A stretch of 64,000 nucleotides of DNA from a virus (taxonomy: Duplodnaviria; Caudoviricetes): the IMG/VR virus record IMGVR_UViG_3300028805_000046, positions 32,001-96,000 of that record; one strand, 5' to 3'. Below are positions 36,947 through 63,810 of the stretch, in pieces. Below the pieces are notes generated by a model, which was not told where the DNA came from, did not search any database, and saw only the letters and a program-made list of their open reading frames with translations. A program made the position numbers and the translations under genes. The stretch's first letter is position 1, and the number at the start of each line of letters is the position of its first letter.

Positions 36947-37156
36947 ATGAGTGTAAAGATCACAATCAAGAATAAGAGCTCACGAGACATTCCTCAAGAA
37001 CTTGTTGAGGAGATTCAGTTTAAGACTCTTGACGAAATAAATTCTATTGCAGAGCAGTATAATCTTAAGGTCACTGAAATGACAAATGAATATAAGAATG
37101 CTAAGCTCGTAGAACAAGAATTGACATTTGGAGACAGATATGCAAAAGAAAATTAA
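36947..37156 (+). CDS. Hypothetical protein
   Basis: GAGGT RBS; promoter TGTTAAATT upstream. Confidence 0.65.
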   Translation: MSVKITIKNKSSRDIPQELVEEIQFKTLDEINSIAEQYNLKVTEMTNEYKNAKLVEQELTFGDRYAKEN

Positions 37157-38507
37157 GTGGGGATTTATTCAGCCGCTAACGGGGGGCTTTGCGTGCGGTG
37201 CGGAGCGAGCAATTGGCGCCCCTCCTGATTGGGTACTTTCATTCCCAGGTTTCTGCGGTCACACTGAAAACCCAGACGGAACTGTTAAGAGTGCTATGAA
37301 CGAGTATCATTATCTCATGTATATGAAGAAGCACAACAAGTTGCCGCCTTATCTTACTATCAACCGTCACCCGTTTGCTGACTTCACTAAGGAAGAAGAT
37401 CCTTGGCACCCAGAACTAATCAAGAATGATTTCAGCACTACCGACACCATTGATTTAAGCAATACAGACCTTGTATGCGCATTGCCAGTCTGTTCTGGAT
37501 TGTCCAATGCCACAACGACAAAGAACGATGAGACGCGTGAACTAAGAAACTGCAACATGCAGTGGATCACAAAGTTTGTTCTTGAACACATCAAGCCAAA
37601 AGCTTACATCTTTGAAAATGCTCCTGCTTTGTTCGCAGGCGCTAAGGGCGCTCCAATCCGTGAGTTCATTGACAAGACTGCCGAAGCAGCAGGCTATTCA
37701 GTCACTTACTTCAAGACCGACACATGCTTGCATCACAATGCTCAGCGTCGTCCAAGAACATTCGTAATTTGCTGGAAGTGGGAAGGCGAACATAAGCAGA
37801 TGCCGCCTATCATCAATTTCGTTCGTGATGAAATTTCCGTTAAGGACTTCTTCAATGAAATGCCTAATTACGAACAGAATGAAGAAATGCCTCTGTCTTG
37901 GTGCAATCAGAATATCTTGGACTACTTCAAGCAGGCTCACCCAAATGATTACCGTGAGCTCTTGAAGGAAAGAACAGGATTTGCTCATATCATTGAATGT
38001 GGCGAAAAGGAACAGTACATCAAGTTCTGTGAAACCTATCAGTGGAAAGGCGAAAATTATGAAACACAGGAAAAGCACCGTGCATCAATGATTCGTTCAA
38101 TCAATCATGCAGATGACAAGCATAAGGTTGGTTCATGGATCTTTGACACGACTACTGCAGTAATTGATGACAAGAAGAACATTCCGTCAATCATGCATAA
38201 GGTCACTACTTCCAAGTTGCATCCTTACAAAGATCGTCTTTTGACAGTCGGCGAAATTCTTTACTGTATGGGTATGCCGACCGACTATCACATTTATGGC
38301 GAGACCTGTGAAAAGTCGCATCAGACAGGTCAGAATGTTCCAGTAAAGACTGCGGAGTACATCGTTTCTGAAATCGTCCGTGTCTTGAACAACTGGGAAA
38401 CTGACAGACTTAACACTAACGGCAATCCGTTCTTCGGTGATGACGACAATGTAGAATTTGTGGACAACACCAAGAGGACATACTCAACTAAGCCGACGGA
38501 GAAATAA
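37140..38507 (+). CDS. Divergent C5-cytosine DNA methyltransferase-fold enzyme (paralog A)
   Basis: Motif IV LPVCSGLS, VI FENAP, VIII QRRPRTF, IX RLLTVGE..MGMP, X GQNVPV; motif I atypical (QPLTGG). Confidence 0.82.
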   Translation: MQKKIKWGFIQPLTGGFACGAERAIGAPPDWVLSFPGFCGHTENPDGTVKSAMNEYHYLMYMKKHNKLPPYLTINRHPFADFTKEEDPWHPELIKNDFSTTDTIDLSNTDLVCALPVCSGLSNATTTKNDETRELRNCNMQWITKFVLEHIKPKAYIFENAPALFAGAKGAPIREFIDKTAEAAGYSVTYFKTDTCLHHNAQRRPRTFVICWKWEGEHKQMPPIINFVRDEISVKDFFNEMPNYEQNEEMPLSWCNQNILDYFKQAHPNDYRELLKERTGFAHIIECGEKEQYIKFCETYQWKGENYETQEKHRASMIRSINHADDKHKVGSWIFDTTTAVIDDKKNIPSIMHKVTTSKLHPYKDRLLTVGEILYCMGMPTDYHIYGETCEKSHQTGQNVPVKTAEYIVSEIVRVLNNWETDRLNTNGNPFFGDDDNVEFVDNTKRTYSTKPTEK

Positions 38508-38576
38508 AAACCGCCGGTTTGCATTTTGTTAAAAATTTTTTATATTGATACTGTAAAACCCTCAACAAAGGAGTAA

Positions 38577-38945
38577 ATGATGGGTACACTTACTAAAGGT
38601 TCATACGCACTTGACAAGAAAACAGGCAGATGCTATCTTATGCTTACTGATTCTGCCATTGACAGCGGCAACAGACGTTGGGTTGAAACCTCTCGTCTCA
38701 ACCGTAAGAATGGTCAGGTTACTGGAAGCAAGAATGCAATTCGTTGCCAAGTTTCTGAAAATCAGCTTATTCCGATTTCTTACGCTGAAGGACGCCTCGC
38801 AATGTCTGTTGAACAGTTCTTCAGAAACCATCTCGTAAAGGACGCAGTTTGGGAAACCGCACTTACTGTTTACGATGATATTCTTAAGCCTCGTGGACTT
38901 GATCCGAAGGCTGTCCAGCGTTCATTCTACAAAGGAGCTTGCTAA
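38577..38945 (+). CDS. Hypothetical protein
   Basis: Promoter TTTGCA-17-TATATT (38518-38546) and AAGGAG RBS. Confidence 0.7.
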   Translation: MMGTLTKGSYALDKKTGRCYLMLTDSAIDSGNRRWVETSRLNRKNGQVTGSKNAIRCQVSENQLIPISYAEGRLAMSVEQFFRNHLVKDAVWETALTVYDDILKPRGLDPKAVQRSFYKGAC

Positions 38946-39118
38946 TGTGGAAGATCACTAAGTATCACTGTGATGAAAACGGATCTCCGTACGGCGAACC
39001 GTTCACTACTGTCTGCTACACTCAAGAACTTATGGAGTCTTACCGTAAGGCTCACTTCGTTCAGAAGATTGTAGAAGTTCTCGGCAAAGGCCAAGAAAAG
39101 GTAGTTTGGGAAAGATAA
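38945..39118 (+). CDS. 57-aa hypothetical protein (not in the ORF track)
   Basis: AAGGAG RBS, TAATG coupling, MWKITKYH... Confidence 0.55.
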   Translation: MWKITKYHCDENGSPYGEPFTTVCYTQELMESYRKAHFVQKIVEVLGKGQEKVVWER

Positions 39119-39121
39119 TTT

Positions 39122-39982
39122 ATGTTCGTCTATTTCATCAATGACTTGCACATAGATAAGCACCTTCCTCAATTAAAGGCTGGTGCTAAATCTTCTGCTG
39201 CAATTCACAGATGGATGGACGAATATTTTCTTCCGGCAGACGTACTCTGTATTGCAGGCGACATCGCTGATAGCAGTTTATTTTTCATTGATTTTCTAGC
39301 AGCCTGCCGCGGAAGATACAAGTACGTCTTTTACGTTTATGGTAATCACGACATCGGAGTCTATAAGTCCGAACACAAGTCAGTGAGCGATAAGTTAGAC
39401 GCTATTGAACATTGGCTTGGGAATTTCAAAAGACTCACTACATCAACTCACGAATGTAAGACAAAATTCTTTAAGTTAGACGGAAACGAAATAGTTGGTG
39501 TCAATGGACTTAAATTCGTTGGAGCTATGGGATCATCCGACTGGTCATACGGCCGCCTCCTTGGCTCAACCAACGATTACTTCATTGAAAGTTGGAGAAA
39601 AGGTCCCGATGGTAAAGCTTGGAAAAATTGGTGGTCAGATAATCCGCTCGAGATCGTTGAAGATGAGAAAAAGAGATTGATTAAGCCACTTGATAATGAA
39701 GCATGCGACCCACGAGTCGTGGTTACTCATTTTGCTCCGCTTGGAGTTCCAGTTCCTGAAAAATTCAAGAATAACTTGAAGACTGGATATTTTTATTGGG
39801 ACTGTTCTGAAATAATAAATAAGTTGCCGAAAGGTACAATCTGGCACTTCGGACATACACATGCCAAACTTCGTTTTGAGAAGGATGGGATTCTTTATCT
39901 GAATAACCCAGTTGGTTATCCCGGCGAAAATGTCAATCTGCTTGGTGCATTTAAGAAAGAAGATTTTTTAATTAAGTTGTGA
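39122..39982 (+). CDS. Calcineurin-like metallophosphoesterase (paralog of 18931)
   Basis: NDLH, AGDI, GNHD, THF, GHTH, NPVGYP. Confidence 0.88.
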   Translation: MFVYFINDLHIDKHLPQLKAGAKSSAAIHRWMDEYFLPADVLCIAGDIADSSLFFIDFLAACRGRYKYVFYVYGNHDIGVYKSEHKSVSDKLDAIEHWLGNFKRLTTSTHECKTKFFKLDGNEIVGVNGLKFVGAMGSSDWSYGRLLGSTNDYFIESWRKGPDGKAWKNWWSDNPLEIVEDEKKRLIKPLDNEACDPRVVVTHFAPLGVPVPEKFKNNLKTGYFYWDCSEIINKLPKGTIWHFGHTHAKLRFEKDGILYLNNPVGYPGENVNLLGAFKKEDFLIKL

Positions 39983-39988
39983 GGAAAA

Positions 39989-40333
39989 ATGAAACTTACT
40001 CAAAATAAAGTCCTGTTGGAAAATAACGAACCTGAGAAAACCTCAGGCGGTATTTTCATTCCGGAAAAGAAAGAAGGAACTGTCTGCTTTAAGGTAGTTG
40101 CGGTTGGACCTGGCCGTTTCTGCCCAGCTACTGGCGAACGCTGTCCTATGAGCGTTAAGCCAGGCGACCGTGTGATGGTGAATACTCAGATAGCGCCTGA
40201 AGTCATTATCACTAAGGGTGGCAAGAAGATGAAGTACTTCATCGTTCCTGAGGAAGAAATTCAGTACATCTTGGAAGATGGCGAAGAAACAAAGTTTATC
40301 TCAGCACAGGAGAAAGCAAACGATGGCTACTAA
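39989..40333 (+). CDS. groES: Co-chaperonin GroES-like 1
   Basis: KTSGGIFIP, VVAVGPG, PMSVKPGDRV. Confidence 0.88.
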   Translation: MKLTQNKVLLENNEPEKTSGGIFIPEKKEGTVCFKVVAVGPGRFCPATGERCPMSVKPGDRVMVNTQIAPEVIITKGGKKMKYFIVPEEEIQYILEDGEETKFISAQEKANDGY

Positions 40334-40652
40334 TCTAAGAGTACTTGATGACAAGATGATTGTCAAGAACCTTACCACGAAGACCGCAGGCGGACTCATT
40401 CTTCCTGGAATGGTCGTTGCATACACAATGTATGAAATTGTCGCAATTGGTCCTGGACATTACCTTCGTTCATACAACCTTACTGTTCCAAATGAAGTAA
40501 AGGTTGGCGACAGAGTTCTTATCAACTACGGTTCATGCAAGTCAATCGGAAACCACAAGAATCCGAAGACTGGCGAAATGGAAGAACTTTTCTTGGTAGA
40601 CAACTCTGAAGAAGCAATCATGGTTTTGGACGAGGATGAAACGGTAGTTTAA
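40323..40652 (+). CDS. groES: Co-chaperonin GroES-like 2
   Basis: LRVLDDKMIV, KTAGGLILP, IVAIGPG, VKVGDRVL. Confidence 0.85.
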   Translation: MATNLRVLDDKMIVKNLTTKTAGGLILPGMVVAYTMYEIVAIGPGHYLRSYNLTVPNEVKVGDRVLINYGSCKSIGNHKNPKTGEMEELFLVDNSEEAIMVLDEDETVV

Positions 40653-40990
40653 TGAAAAAGCCAATTCTCATATCGGTTGGACTTGTCATTCTATACACGC
40701 TAATCATTATGGCTGGCGGCTGCTTTGGTGCGGCCGTCGCTCCTGTTGCTAAGGCCGTTCTTCTGTTCATTCTTAAGTGGGCAGCAATTCTTTTCGGTTA
40801 TGCAACACTTTGCTATCTCCCGTACCGAGTTGTTCAAGCGTTGAAACTTCGAGACGAAACAACAAAGAAAATCTTGGAAGAAAATAAACGAATCGTTCGT
40901 CATAACAAAGAGATGGAACAAAAAGAAAAACAGAAAAATTTGGAAGAAAAAATCATTGACGCTTACTTTAAGCAAGAGGATGAATTATAA
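40652..40990 (+). CDS. Membrane protein with a coiled-coil tail
   Basis: Two TM segments, then a charged helix. Confidence 0.65.
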   Translation: MKKPILISVGLVILYTLIIMAGGCFGAAVAPVAKAVLLFILKWAAILFGYATLCYLPYRVVQALKLRDETTKKILEENKRIVRHNKEMEQKEKQKNLEEKIIDAYFKQEDEL

Positions 40991-41442
40991 TGGAAAAGCA
41001 AACAGAAACTGAAACACAGAAACAAACTTTAACTGACAGAGTCAATCACCCTGCTCATTATAACAAGCACCCGAGCGGAATTGAAGCAATCACTATCACT
41101 CGTTACTTGATGTGTGATCTTGCTAACGCCTGGAAGTACGCAATGCGTTATAAGGACAAGGGTACGCCTAAGGAAGATTTGCTCAAGCTTTGCTTCTATC
41201 TTGAAGACTGGGCTCGCAACTTCGTTGACGAAAATAATGTTGATACTTGCCAGACGACTGTTGACCCGATGCTAGTTATCGGCAAAATGCGTGAGGTTAT
41301 GGAAGCAGAGAAGCAGCCAGAAATCAAGGAAATCTTCAGACAGATTTTGCGTATTTCATTGGACGGCGGGCTCGTTAATCCTGTAAGTTTCAAGCAAGCA
41401 ATCGCAGCAGTCAAAACATACGCAGAAAGTTTTTCTAAATAA
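40990..41442 (+). CDS. DUF3310-family protein
   Basis: DRVNHPAHY..GIEAI..NAWKY..R...KG...EDL.K..FYL. Confidence 0.8.
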   Translation: MEKQTETETQKQTLTDRVNHPAHYNKHPSGIEAITITRYLMCDLANAWKYAMRYKDKGTPKEDLLKLCFYLEDWARNFVDENNVDTCQTTVDPMLVIGKMREVMEAEKQPEIKEIFRQILRISLDGGLVNPVSFKQAIAAVKTYAESFSK

Positions 41443-41447
41443 ACCAA

Positions 41448-41476
41448 TTGCCAAAACTGAAAAACTTTATTAAATT
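41448..41476 (+). promoter_or_regulatory. Sigma70-type promoter
   Basis: TTGCCA-17-TAAATT. Confidence 0.7.
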
Positions 41477-41509
41477 GAAATTGAAAATTTTTTATCTAAA
41501 AGGTGACTT

Positions 41510-41785
41510 ATGAAAAACTTAGAGATTACTTCCTGTAATATTTTGCCCATCGAGAACGGTAAGGGTGGCTGCGTTGCAGTTGCTTCTGTCATTCTCAACA
41601 ATGCAATCAAACTTACGGGATTGAAACTTATAGCGGCGAATGGCGAAAAATACATTTCTTACCCACGCAATTTCAGCAACAAGCACAAGAAATCTTTCTG
41701 CTATCCGATTACTGTTGAAGCAACAAATTATGTTCGAGATACTTTGTGGGAAAAGTATAACGAAGTAACCGCAGCGAATGACTAA
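41510..41785 (+). CDS. spoVG: SpoVG-like nucleic-acid-binding protein
   Basis: EIT..I, AVASVILN, L.GLKLI...G..ISYP, CYPIT, ..L.EKY pattern of SpoVG. Confidence 0.75.
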   Translation: MKNLEITSCNILPIENGKGGCVAVASVILNNAIKLTGLKLIAANGEKYISYPRNFSNKHKKSFCYPITVEATNYVRDTLWEKYNEVTAAND

Positions 41786-42089
41786 GAAAAGAAACATTCC
41801 ACATAACATACCACAGCTCCTTCCAAACAAAAAGAAGGAGCTGTTAAAGTTATGTAATAATCCTCAGGCAATTCAGCGCATTATTCAGATGAATAAGACA
41901 GCGCTCCAAGTCTTGGAAAAGAAAGAAACTGTTCGTTCGCTTACTGTTGCTGACTGGGCTGAACGTGCATTTCAGATTTTACCAATTGACTTGAACAAGC
42001 CAGAAAATCTTGAGAAACTAAAAAACTTATTTAATATGGAGTATACTGATGACGCACGTGATGAACGGAAAGACTGTAACAACGAATGA
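41778..42089 (+). CDS. Hypothetical protein
   Basis: Overlapping ORF. Confidence 0.6.
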   Translation: MTKKRNIPHNIPQLLPNKKKELLKLCNNPQAIQRIIQMNKTALQVLEKKETVRSLTVADWAERAFQILPIDLNKPENLEKLKNLFNMEYTDDARDERKDCNNE

Positions 42090-42279
42090 ACTGATTAGTG
42101 AAGTTTTTGCATCTGTCATTGAAGATGTAGACAAGAACTTTGAAGATTATGCAAAGATTTACATCAAAGACTATGCCGATTTGAATGAAAGCGATTTTGA
42201 AGCGATTGGAAAGTGGAAACCGAAAATCGTTAGCAAACTGAATACAAGACTTAACAAGCGTGGTATGGCTAATGGTTGA
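42049..42279 (+). CDS. Hypothetical protein
   Basis: GGAG RBS. Confidence 0.55.
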   Translation: MTHVMNGKTVTTNELISEVFASVIEDVDKNFEDYAKIYIKDYADLNESDFEAIGKWKPKIVSKLNTRLNKRGMANG

Positions 42280-42580
42280 TTTCACGGTCGGAGCAGTATA
42301 TAAATCTAAAAAGGGTGTTGATTTTAAGATTACTGAAATTAAGAATGGACTTGCAACAATTCAGCACCTGAATTACAGAAGAAAAGCTAGAATTATAACT
42401 TGGTGTGGCGTTAAAGCGTTGACGTTTGACTTTGGTAGTGACATGATTTTAGCTGAACCGATTAAACCGTTTGATGATCTTAATGATGATCTTATGGTCC
42501 AAAGGCCAAGTATAAACATTAATAAGAGTGGAGAATCGTATGTCAGTTTGTACAAAAGACACTACAAAGAAAACACGTAA
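42272..42580 (+). CDS. Hypothetical protein
   Basis: Overlapping ORF. Confidence 0.55.
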   Translation: MVDFTVGAVYKSKKGVDFKITEIKNGLATIQHLNYRRKARIITWCGVKALTFDFGSDMILAEPIKPFDDLNDDLMVQRPSININKSGESYVSLYKRHYKENT

Positions 42581-43250
42581 AAAGAAAGTTGAAAAAGAAC
42601 AGCCGAAGCAGATTTCTGCAGATGGCGTTGAAGCACTTGTGAATGAAGACACTGAACAGGCAGTTGTTGCGGGCGTAGATCCGATGGCAATCCCTGACTA
42701 CTTTAATAACATTCGTAACAACTATTTCGTCGCTAACCGCATCATTTGGTTGACTACTGATATTGACTGGGAAAATGTAACGGGAGTGCTTCAGAAACTT
42801 GCATTTGCTGATGACAAGACAAAAGATCCTATCTGGTTGATTATTGGCTCTTGTGGCGGTTTGTGCGATGCTGGTATGGCGCTTGTAGATATGATTGAGA
42901 GCCTTAAACGCAAAGGAGTAATAGTCAATACCGTCTGTGCAGGTTCAGCCTCTTCTATGGCGGCCGTTATCCTTTCTTCAGGATCGCAAGGCCATCGCTA
43001 TGCTTACCCGTCTGCTCGTATTATGATTCATCAGGCACGTGTTCTTATGGCTGGTGGTTCATACGATGAAATGCAGAACGAAGCAAATGAACTTAAGTAC
43101 TGGACTGATGTTATCGCCAAGATGCTCGCAAAGAACTCTGGACAGAAGATCTCAGAAATTGCGAAGGCTATGGCTTATGATAACTATATGTCTGCAACCG
43201 AGGCTAAGAAATTTGGTCTCATTGACAAAGTAGAAGCAATTATTCCATAA
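42540..43250 (+). CDS. clpP: ClpP-like protease subunit
   Basis: NRIIWL, IGSCGG, SASSMAAVILSSG (Ser), RIMIHQ (His), YDNYMSA (Asp), AKKFGLID. Confidence 0.9.
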   Translation: MSVCTKDTTKKTRKKKVEKEQPKQISADGVEALVNEDTEQAVVAGVDPMAIPDYFNNIRNNYFVANRIIWLTTDIDWENVTGVLQKLAFADDKTKDPIWLIIGSCGGLCDAGMALVDMIESLKRKGVIVNTVCAGSASSMAAVILSSGSQGHRYAYPSARIMIHQARVLMAGGSYDEMQNEANELKYWTDVIAKMLAKNSGQKISEIAKAMAYDNYMSATEAKKFGLIDKVEAIIP

Positions 43251-43251
43251 T

Positions 43252-43866
43252 ATGAAGAAAAACTTTGATACATTAAAGAATTCATTGTTTGGAAAAAATG
43301 ACCAGCCGAGTGAAGAACCGGCTGGTTCTTTTGACGAACAAGAAGAGAAACCCGTTAACATTTTGTGCAAAATGATTATGGATCTCTATAAAGAAGATCC
43401 TAAGAAGTATGCACAGATTGTTAATGAAGCAAATCAGTACACTGACTATCATGATGACTACCGTGTGTACTTTGACACTGACGAAAAGTTCCGTGAGTTG
43501 GTCAACATGAAGTACACTGACACACATCATTATTATTCTATCATCAGACGATACGAAAACATGATGAATAGATTTCTTGTGCTGTTTGACTTGGGCTGGG
43601 TGTTCCATGTTAACATGCCCGAACCAAAGGAAAGCGATCTTCCGTCGCCGATGTCTATTGATGATTGCATCAAGAAGTTGGACCAACAGAAGAACAATCC
43701 TTATTGCAGACAGTTCAGCAACTGGCTTATTGAACTCAAGACGTACCGTGAAATCATGCCGATTGCGTTGAAGCAAGCAAAGAAAAAGAAAAAGAAGAAA
43801 ACAAGCAATAAGAAAGAAATACTCGGTCCACCTCCTCCACCACCACTTGGAGACGCTGACATTTAG
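43252..43866 (+). CDS. Hypothetical protein with a poly-Lys and poly-Pro tail
   Basis: KKKKKKK and PPPPPP near the C-terminus. Confidence 0.65.
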   Translation: MKKNFDTLKNSLFGKNDQPSEEPAGSFDEQEEKPVNILCKMIMDLYKEDPKKYAQIVNEANQYTDYHDDYRVYFDTDEKFRELVNMKYTDTHHYYSIIRRYENMMNRFLVLFDLGWVFHVNMPEPKESDLPSPMSIDDCIKKLDQQKNNPYCRQFSNWLIELKTYREIMPIALKQAKKKKKKKTSNKKEILGPPPPPPLGDADI

Positions 43867-43893
43867 CCGGTATAAATAACTTAGAGGAAAAAC

Positions 43894-44640
43894 ATGGGAA
43901 GCTTTAGAGATTTCGCTAACGAAAATGAAAGATTAAGTAAACTTGTGCGTCATGCTCCACCAGCACCACGCATTGAACAGGAAAAACCACAAATGATTCA
44001 AAAACCACAGATAACTAGACGAGTTTCTGTTCCTAGACGCCAGCCGCCTAGAGAACGCAATGTTCTTGCAGAATCTGAAAATATGATTTCTGTTCTGCAG
44101 GAAAAGATCGAGCAGGTATTCTATCAGTTCGGTCTTGCTGGACTTCAAAGAATTGATGGAGCAATCATTGACTGCGTTAATGAAATGCTTGACCCAGAAA
44201 CTGCTCCGGTAAGAGGACCGAGCCGCGCTGCTGTCAATCAGACAGTTCGTCAAGCTGGTGGTCGTCCGCAGCCTGCTGCTCCTGCACGTAAGAAGCCGAT
44301 GACTGCGATTGAAATTGCAGCAGCTGCTCTTCGTGATTTGCCGCCAATGCATGAAATAGATTCAGCGCCTGCTAAGCCAGCAGAACAAGCACCTGCAGCT
44401 CCAGCTGCTCCTACTTCTCCTCCTCGCCCAGCTGCACACGTTCCGCCTCCACCTCCTCCACCAGAGCCGGCAGAATACGATCCGATGGCAGCTTTGGCTA
44501 ATGAAAAGCTAAGTCCAGAAGAAATGGCACTTTTACAGAAGGAACTTGCAGCAGCTGGCGAAGACGCTAACGCCGGATTCGTTCCAGCACAGCGAAACAC
44601 GGACGCAATGGCTCTTGCCGCGGCAGCACTTCAAAGATAA
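43894..44640 (+). CDS. Late Pro/Ala-rich low-complexity protein
   Basis: TATAAATA 43871-43878; N-terminal SFRDF. Confidence 0.65.
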   Translation: MGSFRDFANENERLSKLVRHAPPAPRIEQEKPQMIQKPQITRRVSVPRRQPPRERNVLAESENMISVLQEKIEQVFYQFGLAGLQRIDGAIIDCVNEMLDPETAPVRGPSRAAVNQTVRQAGGRPQPAAPARKKPMTAIEIAAAALRDLPPMHEIDSAPAKPAEQAPAAPAAPTSPPRPAAHVPPPPPPPEPAEYDPMAALANEKLSPEEMALLQKELAAAGEDANAGFVPAQRNTDAMALAAAALQR

Positions 44641-44643
44641 TCT

Positions 44644-45143: not shown

Positions 45144-45174
45144 GCGTCTTTTCTTCCCTCCGAATAAATACAAT

Positions 45175-45732: not shown

Positions 45733-45735
45733 CTT

Positions 45736-55906: not shown

Positions 55907-55933
55907 GTATAAATAGAAAAAGGAGATTTTGAA

Positions 55934-56374
55934 ATGGACGTAAAAAATATGATAGCTGGATTCAGTAACTGGTACCATAATCAGTACCTTAAGGAAGACG
56001 GATATGTAGATGAACCGCTTGACCCAGAGGGAGTTGCAGTGCAGCAAGCAAACGCACAGCAACAGGCTGCTCAGGCAAACACACAGTCTGCTGCGCCTCA
56101 GCAAGCTGGTTCATGTTTCAAGAAGTACTTCTCAGGAAATGGTACTATGAAGGCTAACCTTGCTTCTCTTGGCAAGGAACTCGGCGATGCTCTTGTTGCT
56201 TTTGCCCTTAAGGAATATGTTTCGCCTGATATGTTTGATGGCGATGACAACCGTATCAACTATGAAACAGCTATTCGTGATACGATTGCAGAAAATTACA
56301 ACTTGAAGATCATCGAAATTCTTCGCAATGCCGGTATCTTCATTTCAAACACTAAGGAAAAGTACACAAAGTAA
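55934..56374 (+). CDS. Hypothetical late protein (Gln/Ala linker)
   Basis: TATAAATA 55908-55915; AAGGAG RBS. Confidence 0.7.
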   Translation: MDVKNMIAGFSNWYHNQYLKEDGYVDEPLDPEGVAVQQANAQQQAAQANTQSAAPQQAGSCFKKYFSGNGTMKANLASLGKELGDALVAFALKEYVSPDMFDGDDNRINYETAIRDTIAENYNLKIIEILRNAGIFISNTKEKYTK

Positions 56375-56386
56375 TAGGTAGTCAAG

Positions 56387-56797
56387 ATGAAAGAATTGAA
56401 TGAAGCAATAGAAAGATTAAACAAAGCCGGATTCATTGTTGAAGGTTACGGACGCAACGAGTTTAACACTGATGGTACCCGCAAGCAAACCCGCTATGGC
56501 AATGGCGCTGGCGCTGCAGGATATACTTACAAGTCACCTACTAAAGACCGCATGTATATCAAGATCTTGCAGTGCCTTCTTGATGGCGAGAAGACAAAGG
56601 CTCAAGTTCATGTCGAAGTTGGTCTGCCTGACCCAACTGCTAAGGATGAACGCGGACATGTAAGTAACTACTATACATCAGTATGGCAGGAACTACGCCG
56701 TGCTGGACTTGTAGATTTTGAACGTAGAGATGGAAAGACTCTCTGGTTCATCACTGAACGCGGCATGGAACTTGTTGATGAGGCAAACGGAGTGTAA
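56387..56797 (+). CDS. Winged-helix DNA-binding protein with a head-protein-like leader
   Basis: ELNEAIERLNKAGFIVE leader; ILQCLLDGEKT...QELRRAGLV...WFITERG. Confidence 0.6.
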   Translation: MKELNEAIERLNKAGFIVEGYGRNEFNTDGTRKQTRYGNGAGAAGYTYKSPTKDRMYIKILQCLLDGEKTKAQVHVEVGLPDPTAKDERGHVSNYYTSVWQELRRAGLVDFERRDGKTLWFITERGMELVDEANGV

Positions 56798-56824
56798 AGG
56801 CTCCACCTAATCATCTTTTTGATG

Positions 56825-56850
56825 ATGCGGGCAAACTGCCCGCATTTTTT
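56825..56850 (+). terminator. Intrinsic terminator
   Basis: ATGCGGGCA/TGCCCGCAT stem plus T run. Confidence 0.8.
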
Positions 56851-56881
56851 GTCTTGAATAAATAAACTAGAGGAGATTTAC

Positions 56882-57355
56882 ATGGATATTAAGACTATCT
56901 ACTGCGACATGGACGGCGTTCTTACTGATTTCATTAAAGGCGCTCAGAAAGCAGACGCCATTGATGGAAAGGTGGTAGACTGGAAGAAAATCAATAAGCT
57001 TGGATCCGCATTCTGGGCTGAACTTGAATGGACAAAAGATGGACAGCAGTTTATCAACTGGCTAAGAAAGCTCTGTACTGAGAGTAAGATTGATCTTTGC
57101 ATCCTTTCATCTGTTGGTAGAGAAGAAGGCGTCAAAGGCAAGCAGATGTGGCTTGACGAAAAGACTCCATTCATTTCAAAGCAGAATCGTTACTTCGTAA
57201 AGAGGGGATCTGATAAAGGTAAGTACGCTTCTAGGTCTTCAATTCTTATTGATGACTTTGGTAAGAACATTGAGGCGTTTATCATGGCTGGCGGACAGGC
57301 CGTTAAGTATGAAAACTTTAATCAAGCAAGAGACGAGATTACAGGTTTGCTATAA
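56882..57355 (+). CDS. HAD-family 5'(3')-deoxyribonucleotidase
   Basis: IYCDMDGVLTDF, ILSS, GK..WL, LIDD. Confidence 0.85.
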   Translation: MDIKTIYCDMDGVLTDFIKGAQKADAIDGKVVDWKKINKLGSAFWAELEWTKDGQQFINWLRKLCTESKIDLCILSSVGREEGVKGKQMWLDEKTPFISKQNRYFVKRGSDKGKYASRSSILIDDFGKNIEAFIMAGGQAVKYENFNQARDEITGLL

Positions 57356-58197
57356 TGACAAATTTTGCTGAAGAGTTCGCAAAGACATTCGGAAACAGCT
57401 GTCCGCCAACAACTGACTGGAATGCGCCGCGCCCATTTGATGCTTTGAATAATGACTGTTATAAAGCAGAGGCAGCGTTGATTAGCGAACTTACTTCAGA
57501 AGCGTACAATCAGTTCGGCTTTGAGGTGCAGTACTTTATCAAGAAGATAAGTACCAAGAAAGACAAGCTCTATGGCGAAGACGCTCTTGAGAACTTCGAG
57601 AGACGCTTTAGATTGAAAGTCTATGCCGAAAACGTTCCGCAGCTGCAGAGACAGTACCAGCTGCAAGGCATGCTTTATACCGAAATCGTTACCTTGCAGG
57701 CTACGATAGAACATTTTAGAGAAGCATCTACCTACGACTACGTCACTCATGAACAGGCATGGCCGGAGTACTATCCGAAGATAGGTGATGTGATGTACTT
57801 TCCTTGGTGCGACTTATACTATGAGATCTTGAACGTAAAGGAATTTGCTGAAGGTACTTCGTTCTTATCGGCTCCTATTACGTTTACATTCCAGCTGAGA
57901 GTATGGAGAAACGCTCATGAAAGCGTAGACCATACAGAAGTCAATGACGATAAGATGGAGCATTTGAACAGCTACGTCAGCCTTGCCGAAACGTTCCACA
58001 TTGACCACAAGACAGATGATGGCAAGTATGAGCACATGGGACCGCCAAAATCGGATCATGCTGAGCTCAAGACCAGTAAGGTTGAAGCGAAAGGCGATGT
58101 GCTTGCAGTCAATGACTATCTTAAGACGCAGGAACACGTTTTGTTTAAGAAGAAAGGTAAAGATAAGTCACTCGATCCATTTGATGGGTGGAGATAA
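57355..58197 (+). CDS. gp14: Neck protein (T4 gp14 family)
   Basis: L.SEAYNQFG.EV.Y, LYGED, PKIGDVMYFPW..YEI..V. Confidence 0.8.
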   Translation: MTNFAEEFAKTFGNSCPPTTDWNAPRPFDALNNDCYKAEAALISELTSEAYNQFGFEVQYFIKKISTKKDKLYGEDALENFERRFRLKVYAENVPQLQRQYQLQGMLYTEIVTLQATIEHFREASTYDYVTHEQAWPEYYPKIGDVMYFPWCDLYYEILNVKEFAEGTSFLSAPITFTFQLRVWRNAHESVDHTEVNDDKMEHLNSYVSLAETFHIDHKTDDGKYEHMGPPKSDHAELKTSKVEAKGDVLAVNDYLKTQEHVLFKKKGKDKSLDPFDGWR

Positions 58198-58206
58198 GGA
58201 GAAAAT

Positions 58207-59280
58207 ATGGGAGCGGTAACAGACGCTATTTCAGCAATGAAAGTGCAGCAGTGGGGCAGAACCACTATGGCTGATGGTCAGTGGCTGCAAGAAAAGACTT
58301 TTAAGCAGTTAGACAATAGAGACATTAGATTAGCAAATGAAATTGACTCAATCAATGAACGTATTCCGACTAGCGGTAGTAGCTATGATGGATTGATTCC
58401 TTGGATTACAGATGGTAACCTTGAAAGAAATCCGCTTTTTGTCATTACTGATGGTACTGGAACTAGCCTTCAGAACGCCGCTAGCGGCGATAAGCAGTTC
58501 TACGTCGCACCTAGATTCTTCAACAATGACGACGGCAAGGTATTTGGTATAAAAGAAGGCAAAGCAAAATGGATTGACCCTATTGAGGTAAGTTACATTA
58601 AAGATTCTGAAACTACTAAAGTTGATTCTTTGAAACTGTATTGGAAAGGCTCAGATCAAGCACAGTTTAAAGCAGATGCTAACTGGTTAGGAAGCACTGT
58701 TCCAACTCCTATTTCTACTGATGAAGGAAAAGGCAAAGTTCCTGTTGCATACTACAGAGATGGACGCGGATATTTTAATCTTGAAAGACCTAAAGATTAT
58801 AGATTCGGCGATACAATACAGGATGGACCACTTCCTCAGAACGACGGCAAGGTATTGACTGTTACTTCAGGTGAAGGCGGCACTGCTTATGTAGATTGGA
58901 AGACAGCTCCTGGTACAGTTGAATTTCGTACTCTGCAGTCATATAGCAGTGACCAAAATAAAAAGTTAGTAAAAACGTCAACATTCGCAATGCCAAAAAT
59001 TAATGCTAAGTATTATGGAACTATTGGCTTTAGTGCTAGTATTCCAGGATCATACAGTATCGTGCCTTTAAGCGGTGACACTTTACTAAATGGCATAGTT
59101 TATGAATCACAATGCATAAACTTGCGAAATGTTCCTTCTGGACAGATATGTCATTATAATTTCTATTTTAATGCAGATGATCCTAATAAGCCATTTACTC
59201 ATATTGGAATAAAAGGCGATGCAGTGACTTCTGGTGCTAGTGTAGATATAGATTACTGTTCAGTCTTCTATCAGGAATAG
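58207..59280 (+). CDS. Putative virion fibre/decoration protein
   Basis: Lies between neck and sheath genes; DGKV repeats; beta-rich C-terminus. Confidence 0.45.
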   Translation: MGAVTDAISAMKVQQWGRTTMADGQWLQEKTFKQLDNRDIRLANEIDSINERIPTSGSSYDGLIPWITDGNLERNPLFVITDGTGTSLQNAASGDKQFYVAPRFFNNDDGKVFGIKEGKAKWIDPIEVSYIKDSETTKVDSLKLYWKGSDQAQFKADANWLGSTVPTPISTDEGKGKVPVAYYRDGRGYFNLERPKDYRFGDTIQDGPLPQNDGKVLTVTSGEGGTAYVDWKTAPGTVEFRTLQSYSSDQNKKLVKTSTFAMPKINAKYYGTIGFSASIPGSYSIVPLSGDTLLNGIVYESQCINLRNVPSGQICHYNFYFNADDPNKPFTHIGIKGDAVTSGASVDIDYCSVFYQE

Positions 59281-59300
59281 AAAACATATCTTTTAACCTT

Positions 59301-59326
59301 GACCCTGCGGAAGCAGGGTCTTTTTT
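59301..59326 (+). terminator. Intrinsic terminator
   Basis: GACCCTGC-GGAA-GCAGGGTC plus T6. Confidence 0.85.
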
Positions 59327-59349
59327 CATCTTTTGACCTCGGTCTCCTA

Positions 59350-59357
59350 TATAAATA
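59350..59357 (+). promoter_or_regulatory. T4-type late promoter
   Basis: TATAAATA upstream of the sheath gene. Confidence 0.8.
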
Positions 59358-59422
59358 CCATAGTAAAGTTCATATTTTGTGACGTGAGTGAAATTATTAG
59401 AAGTTTAATATAGAGGAAAAAT

Positions 59423-62400
59423 ATGGCAAGATATTCATATCCGTCTATCCGAATGACTGAGATTGACAATTCAGTAAGAAATGTCTCTACTCCTACAGTC
59501 GGTGTTGGCGCTATCGTTATGAAGGCCAACCGTGGTCCTGTTAACGAACGCATTACTACTCATAACTATTCAGAATTTAAGGAATATTTCGGTGCACCAG
59601 AAACCGATAGCGATTATGGTCACTTTGCAGCAGAGAACTTCTTTGCTAACTCTCGTAACCTTGTAGCAGTCCGTGCTACTATGGGTGACGAATCCTATGC
59701 ACAGATTCAGTTCCCTTACCAAGATGCAACTGCTGAAGACACTAACCGTTCTAAGGACACTGCATCATTCCAGTTCATCAATAACGAAGACACTAACAAG
59801 CTAGAATTGCTTGAAGATCTTAACCCGGTTGTTCAACTTGACCAGCTTAATGACTGGCAGCAACTCGATGCTCAGGATGGCAAGGTTTACGCTGCTTTTG
59901 CATCTGCTGGTTTGGTAACTGTCAAGGATCTTATTAGCGATACTGCTCCTGGTGTGCTTGTTTATAAGAAAGACCAGACAATCGTTGATGATGAAGGCGA
60001 GTACGTCGAGTTCGTAAAGAACGTTGGCAAGGATGGATCAGTTGTTTCTAAGGAAGACGATCTTATCTTTACTTACAATGCTTGGTATAATGGCGGCGGC
60101 GTTTCATCTGGTGATTTCTCTAAGGGGCAGACAATTTCCTATTACGCTACAAGCGGTGAAGAAACAATACAGGTAAACGGTATTCAAACTAAGTTCGTTG
60201 TTCCGGCTGCTGATACTTTGAACAAGAAGAATCTTGCAGTTTCAATGTACTTGACTGAATCTGCATACAACAGATTGACATCTGCTGCATCTGCTTCCTA
60301 TCAGGACATCTTTGATAAGGATAACTTCTTCAAGAAGGAAGATGCTGATGCTGCTGATTACATGACCCACTTCCCAGCAACAAAGATCAAGGCTAAGGAT
60401 TGGGACGACTGCGAAACCAAGACTCACTACATCGCTACTTCTGCAATGGAAACCACTTCTGGTGATGCAGTTGGTATCTCATTCCGTGAATACGGATTTG
60501 CAGATAAGACTGAAGCACTTGTTATGGGTGATGAAAAGGCAGAATATGCAGTAGAATACGATGCAGCCGACGATTTCTACAAAGTAGAAAAAAATAAGAC
60601 TCTCGCACAGACTATCGCTGAAAGCTATGGTCTCGAAGTTGATGATCTTCTTGCACATGATGATAACGGCAAGATCAAGTACGGTATTCTTTCATACGTT
60701 GATGTTCGTGAAGGCGTAGATCCGGATGATACTGAAGCATCTATTGACGATTACTATACCGGTAAGAGAACATACAAGATCGTATTTGCAGACTTTGACA
60801 AAAATGATCCTAACTACAAGAATGAAAAGCTCTTCTGGTTGTTCTCAGTAAAGAACAAGCATAAGGCTCAGACTGTATCCGTCTATACCATTGGCGGTAT
60901 CCCGCAACCGGCAGTTCTCCCATGGCAGGAAAGCGACCTTGCTCGTCTCGGCGCCCACGCAACCTCTGAAATCCTTAACGCTGTAAGCGGTAAGTATAAG
61001 GACGGTTACACTCGTGCTATCGAGTCTGACAATGAACCTGGCAACGGAGATATTGAGCAGTATAAGTCAAATCACGAAAACCAGCTTGTTATCGCTGCTA
61101 TCGGTCCTGGTAAGTTCGGTAACGACATTGGTGTTTCTATCATCACTGCTGAAGCAGATAAGATTCCTGCTTTGCACCATCCGAACGCTTTCAACTGGAA
61201 GTACAAGTATGATACAGATGATGCTCTTCTCAACGGTAATGAAGACGATCTTACTTGGAAGAAGGTATATCGTATCAACATTTACACCAAGTTGAAGACA
61301 CAGACTGCACAAGCAGCTTGGGGAACCGGTGTTGATGCACTTCTTAAGGATCCTGATGAATTCTGGTTGGTATCTAACGATCCGACTGCTAAGGACGGCA
61401 ATGGTAAGTCTTTGTACGCACCTAACGTCATCAACGGAAACTCAAAGTACATCTACGTTTCACGTAATTCAGTCAATAGCGCAGTAACTGGTTCTGGCAC
61501 ATTTGCTCAGCCTCAGCAAACCTTCGCTATTTACGGATTGACCGGTGGTGAAAACTCTAAGAAGAACACTGCTGCAGAAAAGACTGCTGCATTGAAGCTC
61601 CTTGAAGACCGTCAGAAGGCACCATATAACATTATCTTCAACGTTGAAGCAATTCCTACTTTCAACGGTAGAGAACGTTATGCCGCAATGCAGCAGAGAA
61701 TTGCTCAAATTGCCGGTAACAGAACTATGGACCTTGGTATCGTTCAGACAACTTCCCTTGAAGCACACGACATCAAGACTATGAAGTCTGAAGGTAAGAA
61801 CTTCGCATTCAACAATGGTTCTTACGTCTGGCCTACTGCTAACTATGATAAGTACTACAACTCTGACCTCGCACAGTACATCTACTTGCCGAAGTCTGTT
61901 GCTTGTGCTTGTGCAGTTGCTCGTAACCAGATTCTTGGAACTCCTTGGAAGGCTCCTGCTGGTACTAAGTACGGCGCTATCGCATACTCTGTCAACCAGC
62001 TTGTTAACCTTTCTGACGATGAAATTGGTCAGTTGCTTGACTACAACATCACCACTTCTCGCCTTTGCGGATTGCATGGTGAATGTATCTGGGGTCACAA
62101 GACTGCACTTCGTCAGGAATCAAAGAGAAACCGCGTCAACGTTCGTGAGTGCTTGAACTTCATTGAACTTGCACTCAAGAATTACCTTGACCCATTCTTG
62201 TTCGAGCAGAACATCCCAACTATCCGTGGCTCTATCAAGAACATCATTGATGCATTCTTGAGCCGAGTTGCAGCTGGTGGTGGTATTGACCCGGACTTCA
62301 TAACAAGCGTAGTGGCCGATCCAAATGACGATCATATCGTACTTGTAAATATCGCACTTATTCCGACTGACGTTATTGAGTTCATTGACGTTCGTATCAC

Positions 62401-62443
62401 AATCAACCGTGGTACGTTCACAATTGAGGATAACTTGGCCTAA
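59423..62443 (+). CDS. gp18: Contractile tail sheath protein (T4 gp18 family) with a large insertion
   Basis: YPSIRMTEIDNS, RGPVNE, FGAP, GPGKFGNDI, PWKAPAG, WGHKT, RVNVR, IEFI. Confidence 0.93.
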   Translation: MARYSYPSIRMTEIDNSVRNVSTPTVGVGAIVMKANRGPVNERITTHNYSEFKEYFGAPETDSDYGHFAAENFFANSRNLVAVRATMGDESYAQIQFPYQDATAEDTNRSKDTASFQFINNEDTNKLELLEDLNPVVQLDQLNDWQQLDAQDGKVYAAFASAGLVTVKDLISDTAPGVLVYKKDQTIVDDEGEYVEFVKNVGKDGSVVSKEDDLIFTYNAWYNGGGVSSGDFSKGQTISYYATSGEETIQVNGIQTKFVVPAADTLNKKNLAVSMYLTESAYNRLTSAASASYQDIFDKDNFFKKEDADAADYMTHFPATKIKAKDWDDCETKTHYIATSAMETTSGDAVGISFREYGFADKTEALVMGDEKAEYAVEYDAADDFYKVEKNKTLAQTIAESYGLEVDDLLAHDDNGKIKYGILSYVDVREGVDPDDTEASIDDYYTGKRTYKIVFADFDKNDPNYKNEKLFWLFSVKNKHKAQTVSVYTIGGIPQPAVLPWQESDLARLGAHATSEILNAVSGKYKDGYTRAIESDNEPGNGDIEQYKSNHENQLVIAAIGPGKFGNDIGVSIITAEADKIPALHHPNAFNWKYKYDTDDALLNGNEDDLTWKKVYRINIYTKLKTQTAQAAWGTGVDALLKDPDEFWLVSNDPTAKDGNGKSLYAPNVINGNSKYIYVSRNSVNSAVTGSGTFAQPQQTFAIYGLTGGENSKKNTAAEKTAALKLLEDRQKAPYNIIFNVEAIPTFNGRERYAAMQQRIAQIAGNRTMDLGIVQTTSLEAHDIKTMKSEGKNFAFNNGSYVWPTANYDKYYNSDLAQYIYLPKSVACACAVARNQILGTPWKAPAGTKYGAIAYSVNQLVNLSDDEIGQLLDYNITTSRLCGLHGECIWGHKTALRQESKRNRVNVRECLNFIELALKNYLDPFLFEQNIPTIRGSIKNIIDAFLSRVAAGGGIDPDFITSVVADPNDDHIVLVNIALIPTDVIEFIDVRITINRGTFTIEDNLA

Positions 62444-62466
62444 TCGGTTAAGAAAATAAAAATAAG

Positions 62467-62501
62467 GCGTGCCTCTCAAGGGCACGCTTTTTTGTTATAT
62501 T
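62467..62501 (+). terminator. Terminator plus extended -10 promoter
   Basis: GCGTGCC/GGCACGC stem, T run, TGTTATATT; AATAAATA also follows. Confidence 0.8.
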
Positions 62502-62550
62502 TTTTCCGAAATAAATAACATATAAGTTATTAAAGTATTGAGGTGATTTA

Positions 62551-63810
62551 ATGAGTGATAAGAAAATCCGTTGGGTATCGTTTCAGTCTTTGATAGGTGG
62601 CTGTCCGTTAGGAGCTGAGAAAGCATTTGGATCTGCGCCGCTATTTACGATTGACTACGAAGGCCCAGATAAAGGAAACTCTTCTGCGTATCTTTACTAT
62701 CAGAATGAAATTAAGCATAAGAACATCAGACAGCTAGTGCTTAATGGCAACCTGCTTTCAATGGCTACTGACTTCAAGTCTGAGGAAGACGAAAAGTTCT
62801 TCCAGGAAAATTGCCACGACATTGACGTAGTATCTGCTGTTCCTATCTGTTCTGGCCTTTCTGCTGCTAATACAGTAAATGACAAGACCAAGGGTACTCA
62901 GCGTGGAGCTGCTGCTCAACAGAACAACAATATGTACGGTGTCGCAAAAATGACCTTTGAACGCATCAAGCCGAAGGTATTCATTTTCGAGAACGCTCCT
63001 GCCCTTTTCACTAACACAGGTAAGGCGGTTCGTGATAAGCTCCGCGACATGGGCAAGGAACATGGCTACGTTGTTACTTGGGTAAAGACAAATACCAATA
63101 AGCATGCAAACGTTCAGTATCGTTCAAGAACCTTTGGTATCTTCTGGCGTGCTGATGTGACTCCGCAGCTTGAGTATGTAGACAAGCCACATGGCTCAAT
63201 TAAAGAGTATCTTGCTGACATCTCTAAGGACGCACCGTACAACACTGATGAATGGATCATCAACCCGAATATCCTGAATAACGGCTGGTACAAGTACCTC
63301 AAGGCCAAGTATCCAAATAACTGGAGGGAATATCTAGCCACAAGCAAAAGAGGATTCTGGGAGAACTTCTGGGATAAACTCGACTTTACTGAAATTAAGC
63401 CGTACTGCAATGAAAAGGAATGGAAGTTCTGCGAACACGTGAAAGACAAGCTCTCCCGCAGAATGGGATTCTATGACAACGTCACTCCGCTTTACATGGG
63501 CGACTATCGTGTCCCAACAATCTTCCACCGCACTCTTGCTCGACTTGTCCACTATGAAAAAGACAGAGGCTACACGCTTCGTGAGTTCATGAAGTTTATG
63601 GGCATGCCTGATGACTTCGAGTGGCCTTCAGCAAAGAAGAATTGGGTATGGATCTCGCAAAACGTACCTGTCATGACTTCTTACGACTGGCATCTTCAAA
63701 TTAAGAAGTACCTTGAAGGTGGTTTGAAGAACACTACTGAAAAGGAAACCTACTTCAACAATGAGAAAGGCCCTGAAGAGAAGTCAATGCTTGAGGAAAT
63801 GCTTTCGTAA
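62551..63810 (+). CDS. Divergent C5-cytosine DNA methyltransferase-fold enzyme (paralog B)
   Basis: Motif IV VPICSGLS, VI FENAP, VIII QYRSRTF, IX RGYTLRE..MGMP, X SQNVPV; motif I atypical (QSLIGG). Confidence 0.82.
   Translation: MSDKKIRWVSFQSLIGGCPLGAEKAFGSAPLFTIDYEGPDKGNSSAYLYYQNEIKHKNIRQLVLNGNLLSMATDFKSEEDEKFFQENCHDIDVVSAVPICSGLSAANTVNDKTKGTQRGAAAQQNNNMYGVAKMTFERIKPKVFIFENAPALFTNTGKAVRDKLRDMGKEHGYVVTWVKTNTNKHANVQYRSRTFGIFWRADVTPQLEYVDKPHGSIKEYLADISKDAPYNTDEWIINPNILNNGWYKYLKAKYPNNWREYLATSKRGFWENFWDKLDFTEIKPYCNEKEWKFCEHVKDKLSRRMGFYDNVTPLYMGDYRVPTIFHRTLARLVHYEKDRGYTLREFMKFMGMPDDFEWPSAKKNWVWISQNVPVMTSYDWHLQIKKYLEGGLKNTTEKETYFNNEKGPEEKSMLEEMLS

Follow-up and report, generated by a model that had tools for sequence, protein, structure and literature searches.

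A 64,000-nucleotide stretch of a viral genome (the window; bases 32001-96000 of the 184,671-bp IMG/VR record IMGVR_UViG_3300028805_000046, CheckV completeness 54%) encodes two paralogous proteins, here called A and B, that have the fold of cytosine-C5 methyltransferases (C5-MTases) and share a set of altered motifs around the cofactor pocket. The best explanation of both open reading frames (ORFs) is that they are functional and belong to a large clade of C5-MTase-fold enzymes that is restricted to viruses, and the clade in turn is best explained, from its gene neighbourhoods, as an accessory part of a phage system for making and glycosylating 5-hydroxymethylcytosine (hmC). Positions below are those of the window unless the record (genome) is named, and the two genes and their key motifs are located as follows.

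37140..38507, + strand: paralog A, C5-cytosine-methyltransferase-fold protein of 455 aa (PF00145; AlphaFold model)
37170..37187, + strand: motif I loop of A, QPLTGG, which replaces FxGxGG and forms a strand-loop-helix (DSSP of the model)
37485..37505, + strand: motif IV of A, PVCSGLS, with catalytic Cys118 (residue alignments to M.HaeIII and M.HhaI)
37614..37625, + strand: motif VI of A, ENAP, canonically ENV (residue alignments, conservation)
38328..38342, + strand: motif X of A, GQNVP, with Gln398 at the position of M.HhaI N304 and Asn399 at that of S305 (residue alignments)
62551..63810, + strand: paralog B, C5-cytosine-methyltransferase-fold protein of 419 aa (PF00145; AlphaFold model)
62842..62862, + strand: motif IV of B, PICSGLS, with catalytic Cys100 (conservation)
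63655..63669, + strand: motif X of B, SQNVP (conservation)

Both ORFs are open and their products share 31% identity over about 430 residues (BLASTP E 6e-44). Against a gathering cut-off of 22, PF00145 scores 82.1 bits for A and 58.2 bits for B, with matches that begin at profile positions 43 and 24, respectively. AlphaFold (AF2) models derived from alignments of 50 and 51 sequences reach predicted local distance difference test (pLDDT) values of 93.8 for A and 92.9 for B. The model of A can be superimposed onto the prophage enzyme 3g7u, M.HaeIII, CmoX and M.HhaI with Z scores of 23-25 (root mean square deviation (rmsd) 3.0-3.5 Å over 282-299 residues) and that of B onto 3g7u, M.HaeIII, DNMT1, M.HhaI and CmoX with Z scores of 24-25.6, and taken together both models align over 279-299 residues with 3g7u, 1dct, 8yf3 and M.HhaI at an rmsd of 2.8-3.5 Å. 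A carries a beta-hairpin insertion after strand 2, which B lacks, and the target-recognition domain is large and most closely resembles those of DNMT1/MET1 and bacterial DNA MTases among the structural matches. The motifs of A read QPLTGG (residues 11-16), PVCSGLS (116-122), ENAP (159-162), QRRPR (202-206), RLLTVGE (366-372) and GQNVP (397-401), and those of B read QSLIGG (12-17), PICSGLS (98-104), ENAP (147-150), QYRSR (189-193), RGYTLRE (339-345) and SQNVP (369-373). The catalytic set, which consists of C118, E159, R204 and R206 in A and of C100, E147, R191 and R193 in B, is invariant throughout the 50-51 relatives. The initial annotation, which had described two intact ORFs with C5-MTase catalytic motifs and called for structure prediction and a comparison with M.HhaI, is thus borne out on both counts, as the ORFs are confirmed, every motif string quoted is present and the predicted fold is that of a C5-MTase.

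The departures from canonical enzymes concern residues that line the cofactor pocket in M.HhaI. Across the clade F18 is replaced by Gln, G20 by Leu, Q82 by Ser, V121 by Ala, N304 by Gln and S305 by Asn. Where PF00145 enzymes have FxGxGG in motif I, A has QPLTGG and B has QSLIGG, and the Pro-Cys-Gln of motif IV and Gly-Asn of motif X are represented by Val/Ile-Cys-Ser and (Gly/Ser)-Gln-Asn instead. In HMMER and hhalign alignments PVCSGLS is paired with GFPCQAFS of M.HhaI, so that Val or Ile takes the place of the Pro before the cysteine and Ser119 of A stands at Q82, while ENAP is paired with ENV and (G/S)QNVP with GN(A/S)VP. Motifs I-III gave no alignment to canonical enzymes by HMMER (Pfam, PDB) or by hhalign (canonical phage MTase); the placement of motif I uses the predicted secondary structure and the start of the structural alignment (residue 3 of A or residue 4 of B at HhaI residue 10), which would place Q-P/S-L-x-G-G on F18-A19-G20-L21-G22-G23 and, in A, Q11, P12 and L13 at F18, A19 and G20. 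Among 50 diverse relatives L13, G15, C118, G120-S122, E159-P162, Q202, R204, R206, Q398, V400 and P401 are invariant, the motif I Phe position is Gln in 49 of 50 and the first-Gly position is Leu in all 50, and the motif X Gln at the N304 position is found in 50/50 and 51/51 sequences of the two subfamily alignments. Since these deviations are fixed in 50-51 diverse relatives they are not the product of chance decay. An acidic residue covaries by subfamily, A-type proteins combining S34 with E55 and B-type proteins D35 with S44. All three deviations that had been singled out at the outset as shared by A and B, in motifs I, IV and X, are therefore present and clade-wide, but the P-x-C change is a mild one (M.HaeIII has P-P-C, and some family members have PPC or CPC) and motifs II and III persist.

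Work on M.HhaI gives these positions a meaning. Q82 and N304 are conserved residues that lie beside the transferable group; methylation drops about 16-fold in the Q82A mutant, and with N304A the pocket becomes able to admit larger groups (PMC3526304). A natural change of N304 to Arg marks CmoX, a phage carboxymethyltransferase that depends on carboxy-S-adenosylmethionine (carboxy-SAM) (PMC12783734).

The family is large and, seven phage-like MAG contigs aside, was found in viral or metagenomic DNA only. A profile search of 1.84 billion representative proteins recovered 368 clusters (50% identity) at E <= 1e-30 and IMG/VR holds at least 569 family loci, while 185,579 species genomes yielded only seven, all of them on phage-like contigs of 31-410 kb in metagenome-assembled genomes (MAGs) from gut, rumen or sediment. 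One of these contigs, ONIZ01000001.1 ('uncultured Firmicutes bacterium RUG343'), agrees with IMGVR_UViG_2799112330_000002 both in length (410,106 bp) and in carrying this gene, and is likely a jumbo phage that was binned as a bacterial MAG. A and B represent two subfamilies, each with close relatives of its own, and a relative at about 70% identity carries both genes some 26 kb apart, as in this genome. A DNA-level search with paralog A against cultured phages gave no match. The longer members P0300, P0305 and P0319 were checked for fusions, and neither an extra Pfam domain nor similarity to the neighbouring glycosyltransferase families was found in them. A description of the clade was not found in the literature, where one preprint mentions 'methyltransferases' merely as neighbours of phage glycosyltransferases.

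The genome that harbours A and B also encodes the components of a predicted hmC-sugar pathway, in a scattered arrangement.

1..279, + strand: last 279 bases of a gene for a P-loop nucleotide-kinase-like protein (whole gene at genome 31722-32279), immediately ahead of the gp42-like gene
282..1034, + strand: gp42-like deoxycytidine monophosphate (dCMP) hydroxymethylase of 250 aa (40% identity to T4 gp42; best PDB match 1b49, E 1e-38)
just downstream of the gp42-like gene: gp41/DnaB-type helicase
18428..18934, + strand: dCMP deaminase (PF00383, 73.5 bits)
22276..22914, + strand: gp56-like all-alpha nucleoside triphosphate (NTP) pyrophosphatase, candidate dCTPase (PF08761, 47.5 bits; phrog_173)
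32675..33436, + strand: GT-2-like glycosyltransferase (PF13712, 55.1 bits)
genome 17806-19014, upstream of the window: GT-B-like protein
genome 20187-22497, just ahead of the polymerase: epimerase and NTP-transferase/kinase
genome 22645-25311: DNA polymerase

The gp42-like enzyme keeps the Cys of FMCT, the Asp of RSCD (T4 D179, E. coli N177) and the Asp of LSFD (E. coli D169). In thymidylate synthase (TS) homologs cytosine specificity goes with an Asp in place of E. coli N177 (PMC8670742), and an Asp at the D169 position marks a hydroxymethylase as opposed to the 5-hydroxy-dCMP synthase type (PMC13326640). The kinase-like gene is 38% identical to a conserved family that precedes the gp42-like gene in 13 related loci, and its Thymidylate_kin score of 25.8 bits falls under the cut-off of 27. 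PF08761 also takes in T4 gp56, to which the pyrophosphatase region gave a weak tblastn match. The gene content supports the prediction that this phage has a pre-replicative cytosine-C5 pathway. Of the enzymes assigned to this pathway by the initial annotation the gp42-like dCMP enzyme stands on its diagnostic residues; the adjacent kinase turns out to lie directly upstream, the gene downstream being the helicase; and the gp56-like enzyme shares its Pfam family with T4 gp56 but is no more than a candidate as regards dCTP specificity.

In tblastn searches of the 184-kb record T4 gp1, alpha-gt, beta-gt and dam gave no match and no homolog of the PF21448/gp1-type kinase was found. TET/JBP (PF12851) had no match at E <= 0.1 in the same record, which is about 54% complete, and CmoA was represented in it by a 12-bit match to TIGR00740 only, with the same limit on completeness and with host CmoA as a possible substitute. 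The GT-2-like gene sits together with a 225-aa ORF of unknown function (32001-32678) between the gp44-like (31066-32013) and gp62-like (33757-34242) clamp-loader genes.

Evidence for a connection between the clade and hmC comes from its relatives. A TS homolog is present in 18 of the 23 long IMG/VR records that carry a family member, including all four of those that are at least 90% complete, and the five records without a TS match are 21-38% complete. All of the divergent TS homologs have the DF(M/I/V)CT context around the Cys, Asp at the N177 position and Asp at the D169 position, and the ordinary ThyA copies in these records have Asn177. The TS homolog and the methylase-like gene are separated by a median gap of 5.9 kb, with 15 of 22 pairs lying at most 10 kb apart. 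The co-occurrence with gp42-like genes that had been put forward as a phylogenomic test thus came out positive, and with TS homologs of the Asp177 type. Clustering of the neighbours in 84 loci revealed a recurrent operon which starts with a P-loop kinase-like gene, a gp42-like gene, a HAD phosphatase or ribulose-phosphate epimerase and an NTP-transferase/kinase fusion, and which ends with a GT-B-like (~418 aa) or T4-type alpha-glucosyltransferase, the methylase-like gene, an exonuclease, the clamp and the clamp loader. In 47 of 82 loci the GT-B-like protein is encoded beside the methylase-like gene, and in one further arrangement (L026) a PF11440 alpha-glucosyltransferase (192 bits) is encoded directly upstream of it. 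PDB sequence searches with the conserved neighbours (c36, the 418-aa GT-B-like family and a 292-aa family) returned nothing useful.

Cultured phages show the same association. In Pseudoalteromonas phage XG4 the gp42-like, HAD and NTP-transferase/kinase genes, two glycosyltransferase-like genes and the methylase-like gene are contained within 6.6 kb, and in cyanophage S-TIM5 the sole TS homolog (Asp177) lies 2.4 kb from the family member. Bacillus phage G gp301 is a distant family member with the motifs NCPCSGLS, ENAP and AQGVP; it is located 2.6 kb from the annotated alpha-glucosyltransferase (gp306), with a glucose-1-phosphate thymidylyltransferase (gp309) at a distance of about 5 kb (L130, record 219303-226458), and the phage has a second, Asp177-type TS homolog (record 233481-234188) besides an ordinary ThyA. 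Among phages with canonical C5-MTases that served as controls Klebsiella phage PMBT1 has an Asn177 ThyA only and a TS homolog is lacking altogether in Dolichospermum phage Dfl-JY23, a control that is thin in that it comprises these two cultured phages and organism lists, the IMG/VR relatives of the canonical phage C5-MTase amounting to two short loci only. Together, the neighbourhoods support a strong link between the clade and predicted dCMP-type TS homologs, which extends further to glycosyltransferases.

The S-TIM5 homolog, F417_gp076 (L007:4748-5584), is annotated as 'thymidylate synthase' and combines a ThyA-like PPCH core with Asp at the N177 position (VPLD); since it has Asp177 and is the only TS homolog in a complete genome it is probably dCMP-directed. 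Two other features of the operons in relatives were observed, namely a beta-ketoacyl synthase gene (PF00109 and PF02801; L035:4557-5795) that in several relatives forms part of the hmC-sugar operon, where it separates the gp42-like and dCMP deaminase genes, and tandem TS-like ORFs (L014:6037-7386, L016:3582-4860) in which a full gp42-like gene is followed by one of about 190 aa.

B differs from A in its C-terminus, which is relevant to where the enzyme may act.

63784..63807, + strand: C-terminal peptide of B, SMLEEMLS (residues 412-419), a putative sliding-clamp-binding tail
23158..23916, + strand: gp45-like sliding clamp, to which the B tail would presumably bind (phrog_223, E 2.4e-13)
62464..62517, + strand: intrinsic terminator after the tail-sheath gene (62464-62490 and a T run), followed by a AATAAATA box (62510-62517)

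T4 gp43 ends in SLDFLFG and T4 gp55 in SLDFLYEAND, and both tails are clamp-binding peptides. With a permissive tail pattern only two of the 269 non-overlapping ORFs of the 184-kb record are matched, namely those of the DNA polymerase (GLESFFG) and of B (SMLEEMLS). Across lineages the tail sequences covary between the methylase-like protein, its glycosyltransferase neighbour and the polymerase, and three dialects can be told apart among the relatives.

Dialect 1: methylase-like TLEEFFA, glycosyltransferase TLEDFFG, polymerase TIEDFFS
Dialect 2: methylase-like ..QEEW, glycosyltransferase ..LDDW, polymerase ..LDDW
Dialect 3: methylase-like ..KSLF, glycosyltransferase ..KKLF, polymerase ..TSLF

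Clamp tethering, which had been suggested from the tail of B, is supported because this tail resembles that of the phage's own polymerase and because the tails covary in relatives; comparison across the relatives makes a good case that the sliding clamp would deliver most of the family, B among them, to nascent DNA. A and its subfamily, which end in DNTKQTYS... (DNTKRTYSTKPTEK in A), have no clamp-type tail. The AATAAATA box lies about 35 nt ahead of the start of B and may be B's own late promoter; all eight copies are on the + strand, and eight found against 3.4 expected is a marginal enrichment.

The record as a whole represents a large, uncultured T4-like myovirus with nearly all genes on the + strand. 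Its recognisable genes include those for a gp41-type helicase, gp32, the clamp loader, the clamp, topoisomerase II subunits and gp30.3, together with gp15, a tail sheath of 1006 aa and a neck protein. Two further genes are encoded among the replication and structural genes.

42528-43250: ClpP-family protease (150 bits)
56882-57355: NT5C-type 5'(3')-deoxyribonucleotidase (32.9 bits)

The nucleotidase could have a bearing on the deoxynucleoside monophosphate pools. Outside the window, similarity to the T4 terminase gp17 is split between record 116574-117335 (+) and 164109-164771 (-), two distant sites on opposite strands, one of which corresponds to its N-terminal ATPase portion and the other to its C-terminal nuclease portion.

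What reaction the two proteins carry out can be proposed from these features. B would ride on the sliding clamp and A would act freely, both on newly replicated phage DNA, where a cytosine-type base would be flipped out and attacked at C6 by the conserved Cys. An adenosyl-type cofactor would still be bound, and the reaction would be something other than plain methyl transfer to unmodified cytosine, a proposal that we regard as evenly poised between right and wrong. It could take two forms. The enzymes may work on hmC itself or on a derivative of it, the pocket being enlarged at the Ser and Ala positions to make room for the CH2OH group, which is a tentative suggestion; or they may place a non-methyl group from another donor onto residual unmodified cytosine as a handle for the neighbouring glycosyltransferase, which we consider rather unlikely. 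The two paralogs probably cover different sequence contexts since their target-recognition domains differ. It is conceivable, if doubtful, that hmC-directed covalent catalysis or an unrecognised adenosyl-cofactor donor would give rise to an undescribed cytosine derivative in Bacillus phage G and in numerous jumbo and T4-like phages from the gut, the rumen and the sea. Chemistry of the CmoX type is a separate candidate that finds no support, as a search of the 184 kb for CmoA gave the 12-bit match only and the N304 position is occupied by an invariant Gln and not by Arg.

A number of considerations weigh against a dedicated role in hmC modification. All of the residues for ordinary methyl transfer are present, and the altered activity is itself a prediction. 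The Asn-Glu of motif II, where helix B begins, and the Asp/Asn of motif III after strand 3 are kept, so the adenosine-binding half of the pocket looks preserved, consistent with ordinary SAM binding; because the adenosine-binding features are largely kept, the 'non-SAM' donor of the initial annotation is a conjecture. No cofactor-making gene is conserved beside the methylase-like gene. In this genome the paralogs lie 36 and 62 kb away from the gp42-like gene, and a complete replacement of cytosine by hmC is something that we infer for this phage from its genes. T-even phages run an hmC pathway without, as far as is known, any such gene. As for the linkage, some of the records are near-duplicates and the independent lineages number nearer a dozen, and the association could mirror a shared 'DNA-modification island' and common descent as opposed to a shared pathway.

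The most serious competing explanation is that A and B are ordinary SAM-dependent DNA cytosine-5 methyltransferases with drifted motifs I and X and two specificities, which would write 5-methylcytosine (5mC) either on cytosines that escape replacement (a clamp-borne 'mop-up', comparable to DNMT1 with PCNA) or on DNA that precedes the hmC pool. We take this to be a real possibility, albeit one that we lean against. Both proteins pass PF00145, every catalytic residue is kept with Z scores of 23-25 to active MTases, motif II Asn-Glu and motif III Asp/Asn are retained or compensated, and phage C5-MTases with unusual motifs can be active (PMC8256090). In S-TIM5 a 5mC mop-up would even be coherent, as a ThyA-like TS with Asp177 would yield 5-methyl-dCMP. 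Such drift is nevertheless difficult to reconcile with the fact that Q82, N304 and the adenine-stacking Phe were replaced and then frozen across hundreds of lineages, the more so as Q82A alone lowers M.HhaI methylation to the extent given above. A dCTPase-like enzyme acting with a dCMP hydroxymethylase and a kinase should also leave little unmodified cytosine, and sequence-specific enzymes are poorly suited to mop-up.

The altered pocket would also be accounted for if the proteins had ceased to transfer any group and acted as base-flipping partners or regulators that bind hmC or hold it covalently at the fork for the glycosyltransferase, set the unglycosylated sites or protect DNA against those host enzymes by which hmC or glucosyl-hmC is recognised. 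The frequent adjacency of the methylase-like and glycosyltransferase genes (47/82 loci) and the clamp-type tail that both proteins share in many lineages would suit such a role. However, strict invariance of the Cys, the Glu of ENx, both Arg residues and the Gln-Asn of motif X argues for turnover chemistry, T4-type glucosyltransferases flip the base themselves, and in this genome A is about 3.7 kb from the nearest glycosyltransferase (32675-33436) and B lies among tail genes, which makes this explanation improbable. It is more improbable still, to the point that we give it very little weight, that what the enzymes methylate is host DNA, a target that the initial annotation had also considered, or RNA (transfer RNA, as for DNMT2), with the purpose of reprogramming or marking the host. 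The DNMT2 fold does appear among the structural matches, lower in the list (Z ~20), but the polymerase-like tail speaks for a place at the replication fork of the phage, deoxycytidine is what all of the operon partners act on, and the target-recognition domain is most like that of DNMT1/MET1 and bacterial DNA MTases.

Should A and B prove not to be 5mC writers, a new reaction would be added to the small set of natural DNA-base chemistries, and it would be explained why hundreds of phage lineages in which cytosine C5 is occupied retain a cytosine-C5 enzyme. The family would offer a sequence-specific tool that accepts 5-substituted cytosine or a bulky donor, for which M.HhaI and M.SssI needed engineering in epigenome labelling, and would add to the DNA-modifying enzymes that ride the replication clamp. 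If the enzymes are ordinary, they would still define a clamp-tethered 'mop-up' methylase class. The cultured carriers (Bacillus phage G, Pseudoalteromonas phage XG4 and cyanophage S-TIM5) make the question directly testable.

Compared with known systems, A and B resemble PF00145 enzymes such as M.HhaI, M.HaeIII and the MTase of prophage Cp-933R (3g7u) in the two-domain fold, the motif IV Cys, the motif VI Glu, QxRxR of motif VIII and RxxTxRE of motif IX, to which A adds the motif II Asn-Glu. They differ from them in having QPLxGG, Val/Ile-Cys, Ser in place of Q82, ENAP and (G/S)QNVP, and in that the clade is tied to hmC pathways, in which little free C5 should be available. The genetic setting is reminiscent of the T-even glucosyl-hmC system, which in T4 consists of the dCTPase gp56, the dCMP hydroxymethylase gp42, the kinase gp1 and the alpha- and beta-glucosyltransferases, and with which it has in common a gp42-like enzyme, a gp56-family pyrophosphatase, a dCMP deaminase, glycosyltransferases (including the PF11440 alpha-glucosyltransferase in relatives) and a SLDFLFG-type polymerase tail. 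Unlike that system, the kinase belongs to another P-loop family and not to PF21448, the phage encodes its own nucleoside diphosphate-sugar synthesis, and in relatives both the glycosyltransferase and the methylase-like protein bear clamp-type tails; to our knowledge T4 itself has no C5-MTase-fold gene. The Klimasauskas laboratory has reportedly found that C5-MTases are able in vitro to add aldehydes to cytosine, to condense thiols or selenols with hmC and to remove the hydroxymethyl group. These reactions would use the same Cys-C6 covalent activation and would explain why an hmC phage has a protein with an MTase fold, but they are laboratory side reactions that proceed without SAM, and we know of no natural enzyme that is dedicated to them.

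Two further phage systems can be set beside A and B. The post-replicative hmC pathway that combines a phage C5-MTase with TET/5mYOX (PMC8256090) likewise ties a phage-specific C5-MTase to hmC and glycosyltransferases, whereas here the TS homolog would make hmC before replication, so that a 5mC intermediate is unneeded, and the 184-kb record shows no TET/JBP. CmoX of Synechococcus phage S-B43 (PDB 8yf3; PMC12783734) is also a phage C5-MTase homolog that is changed at the N304 position (Z 24.1), and its product serves as a handle for further hypermodification. It retains Phe25, Glu47 and Asp69, and its N304 position is taken by Arg, whereas A and B have Gln there and have lost the motif I Phe; and while the partner of CmoX is an amide ligase, the partners here are a predicted dCMP hydroxymethylase and glycosyltransferases.

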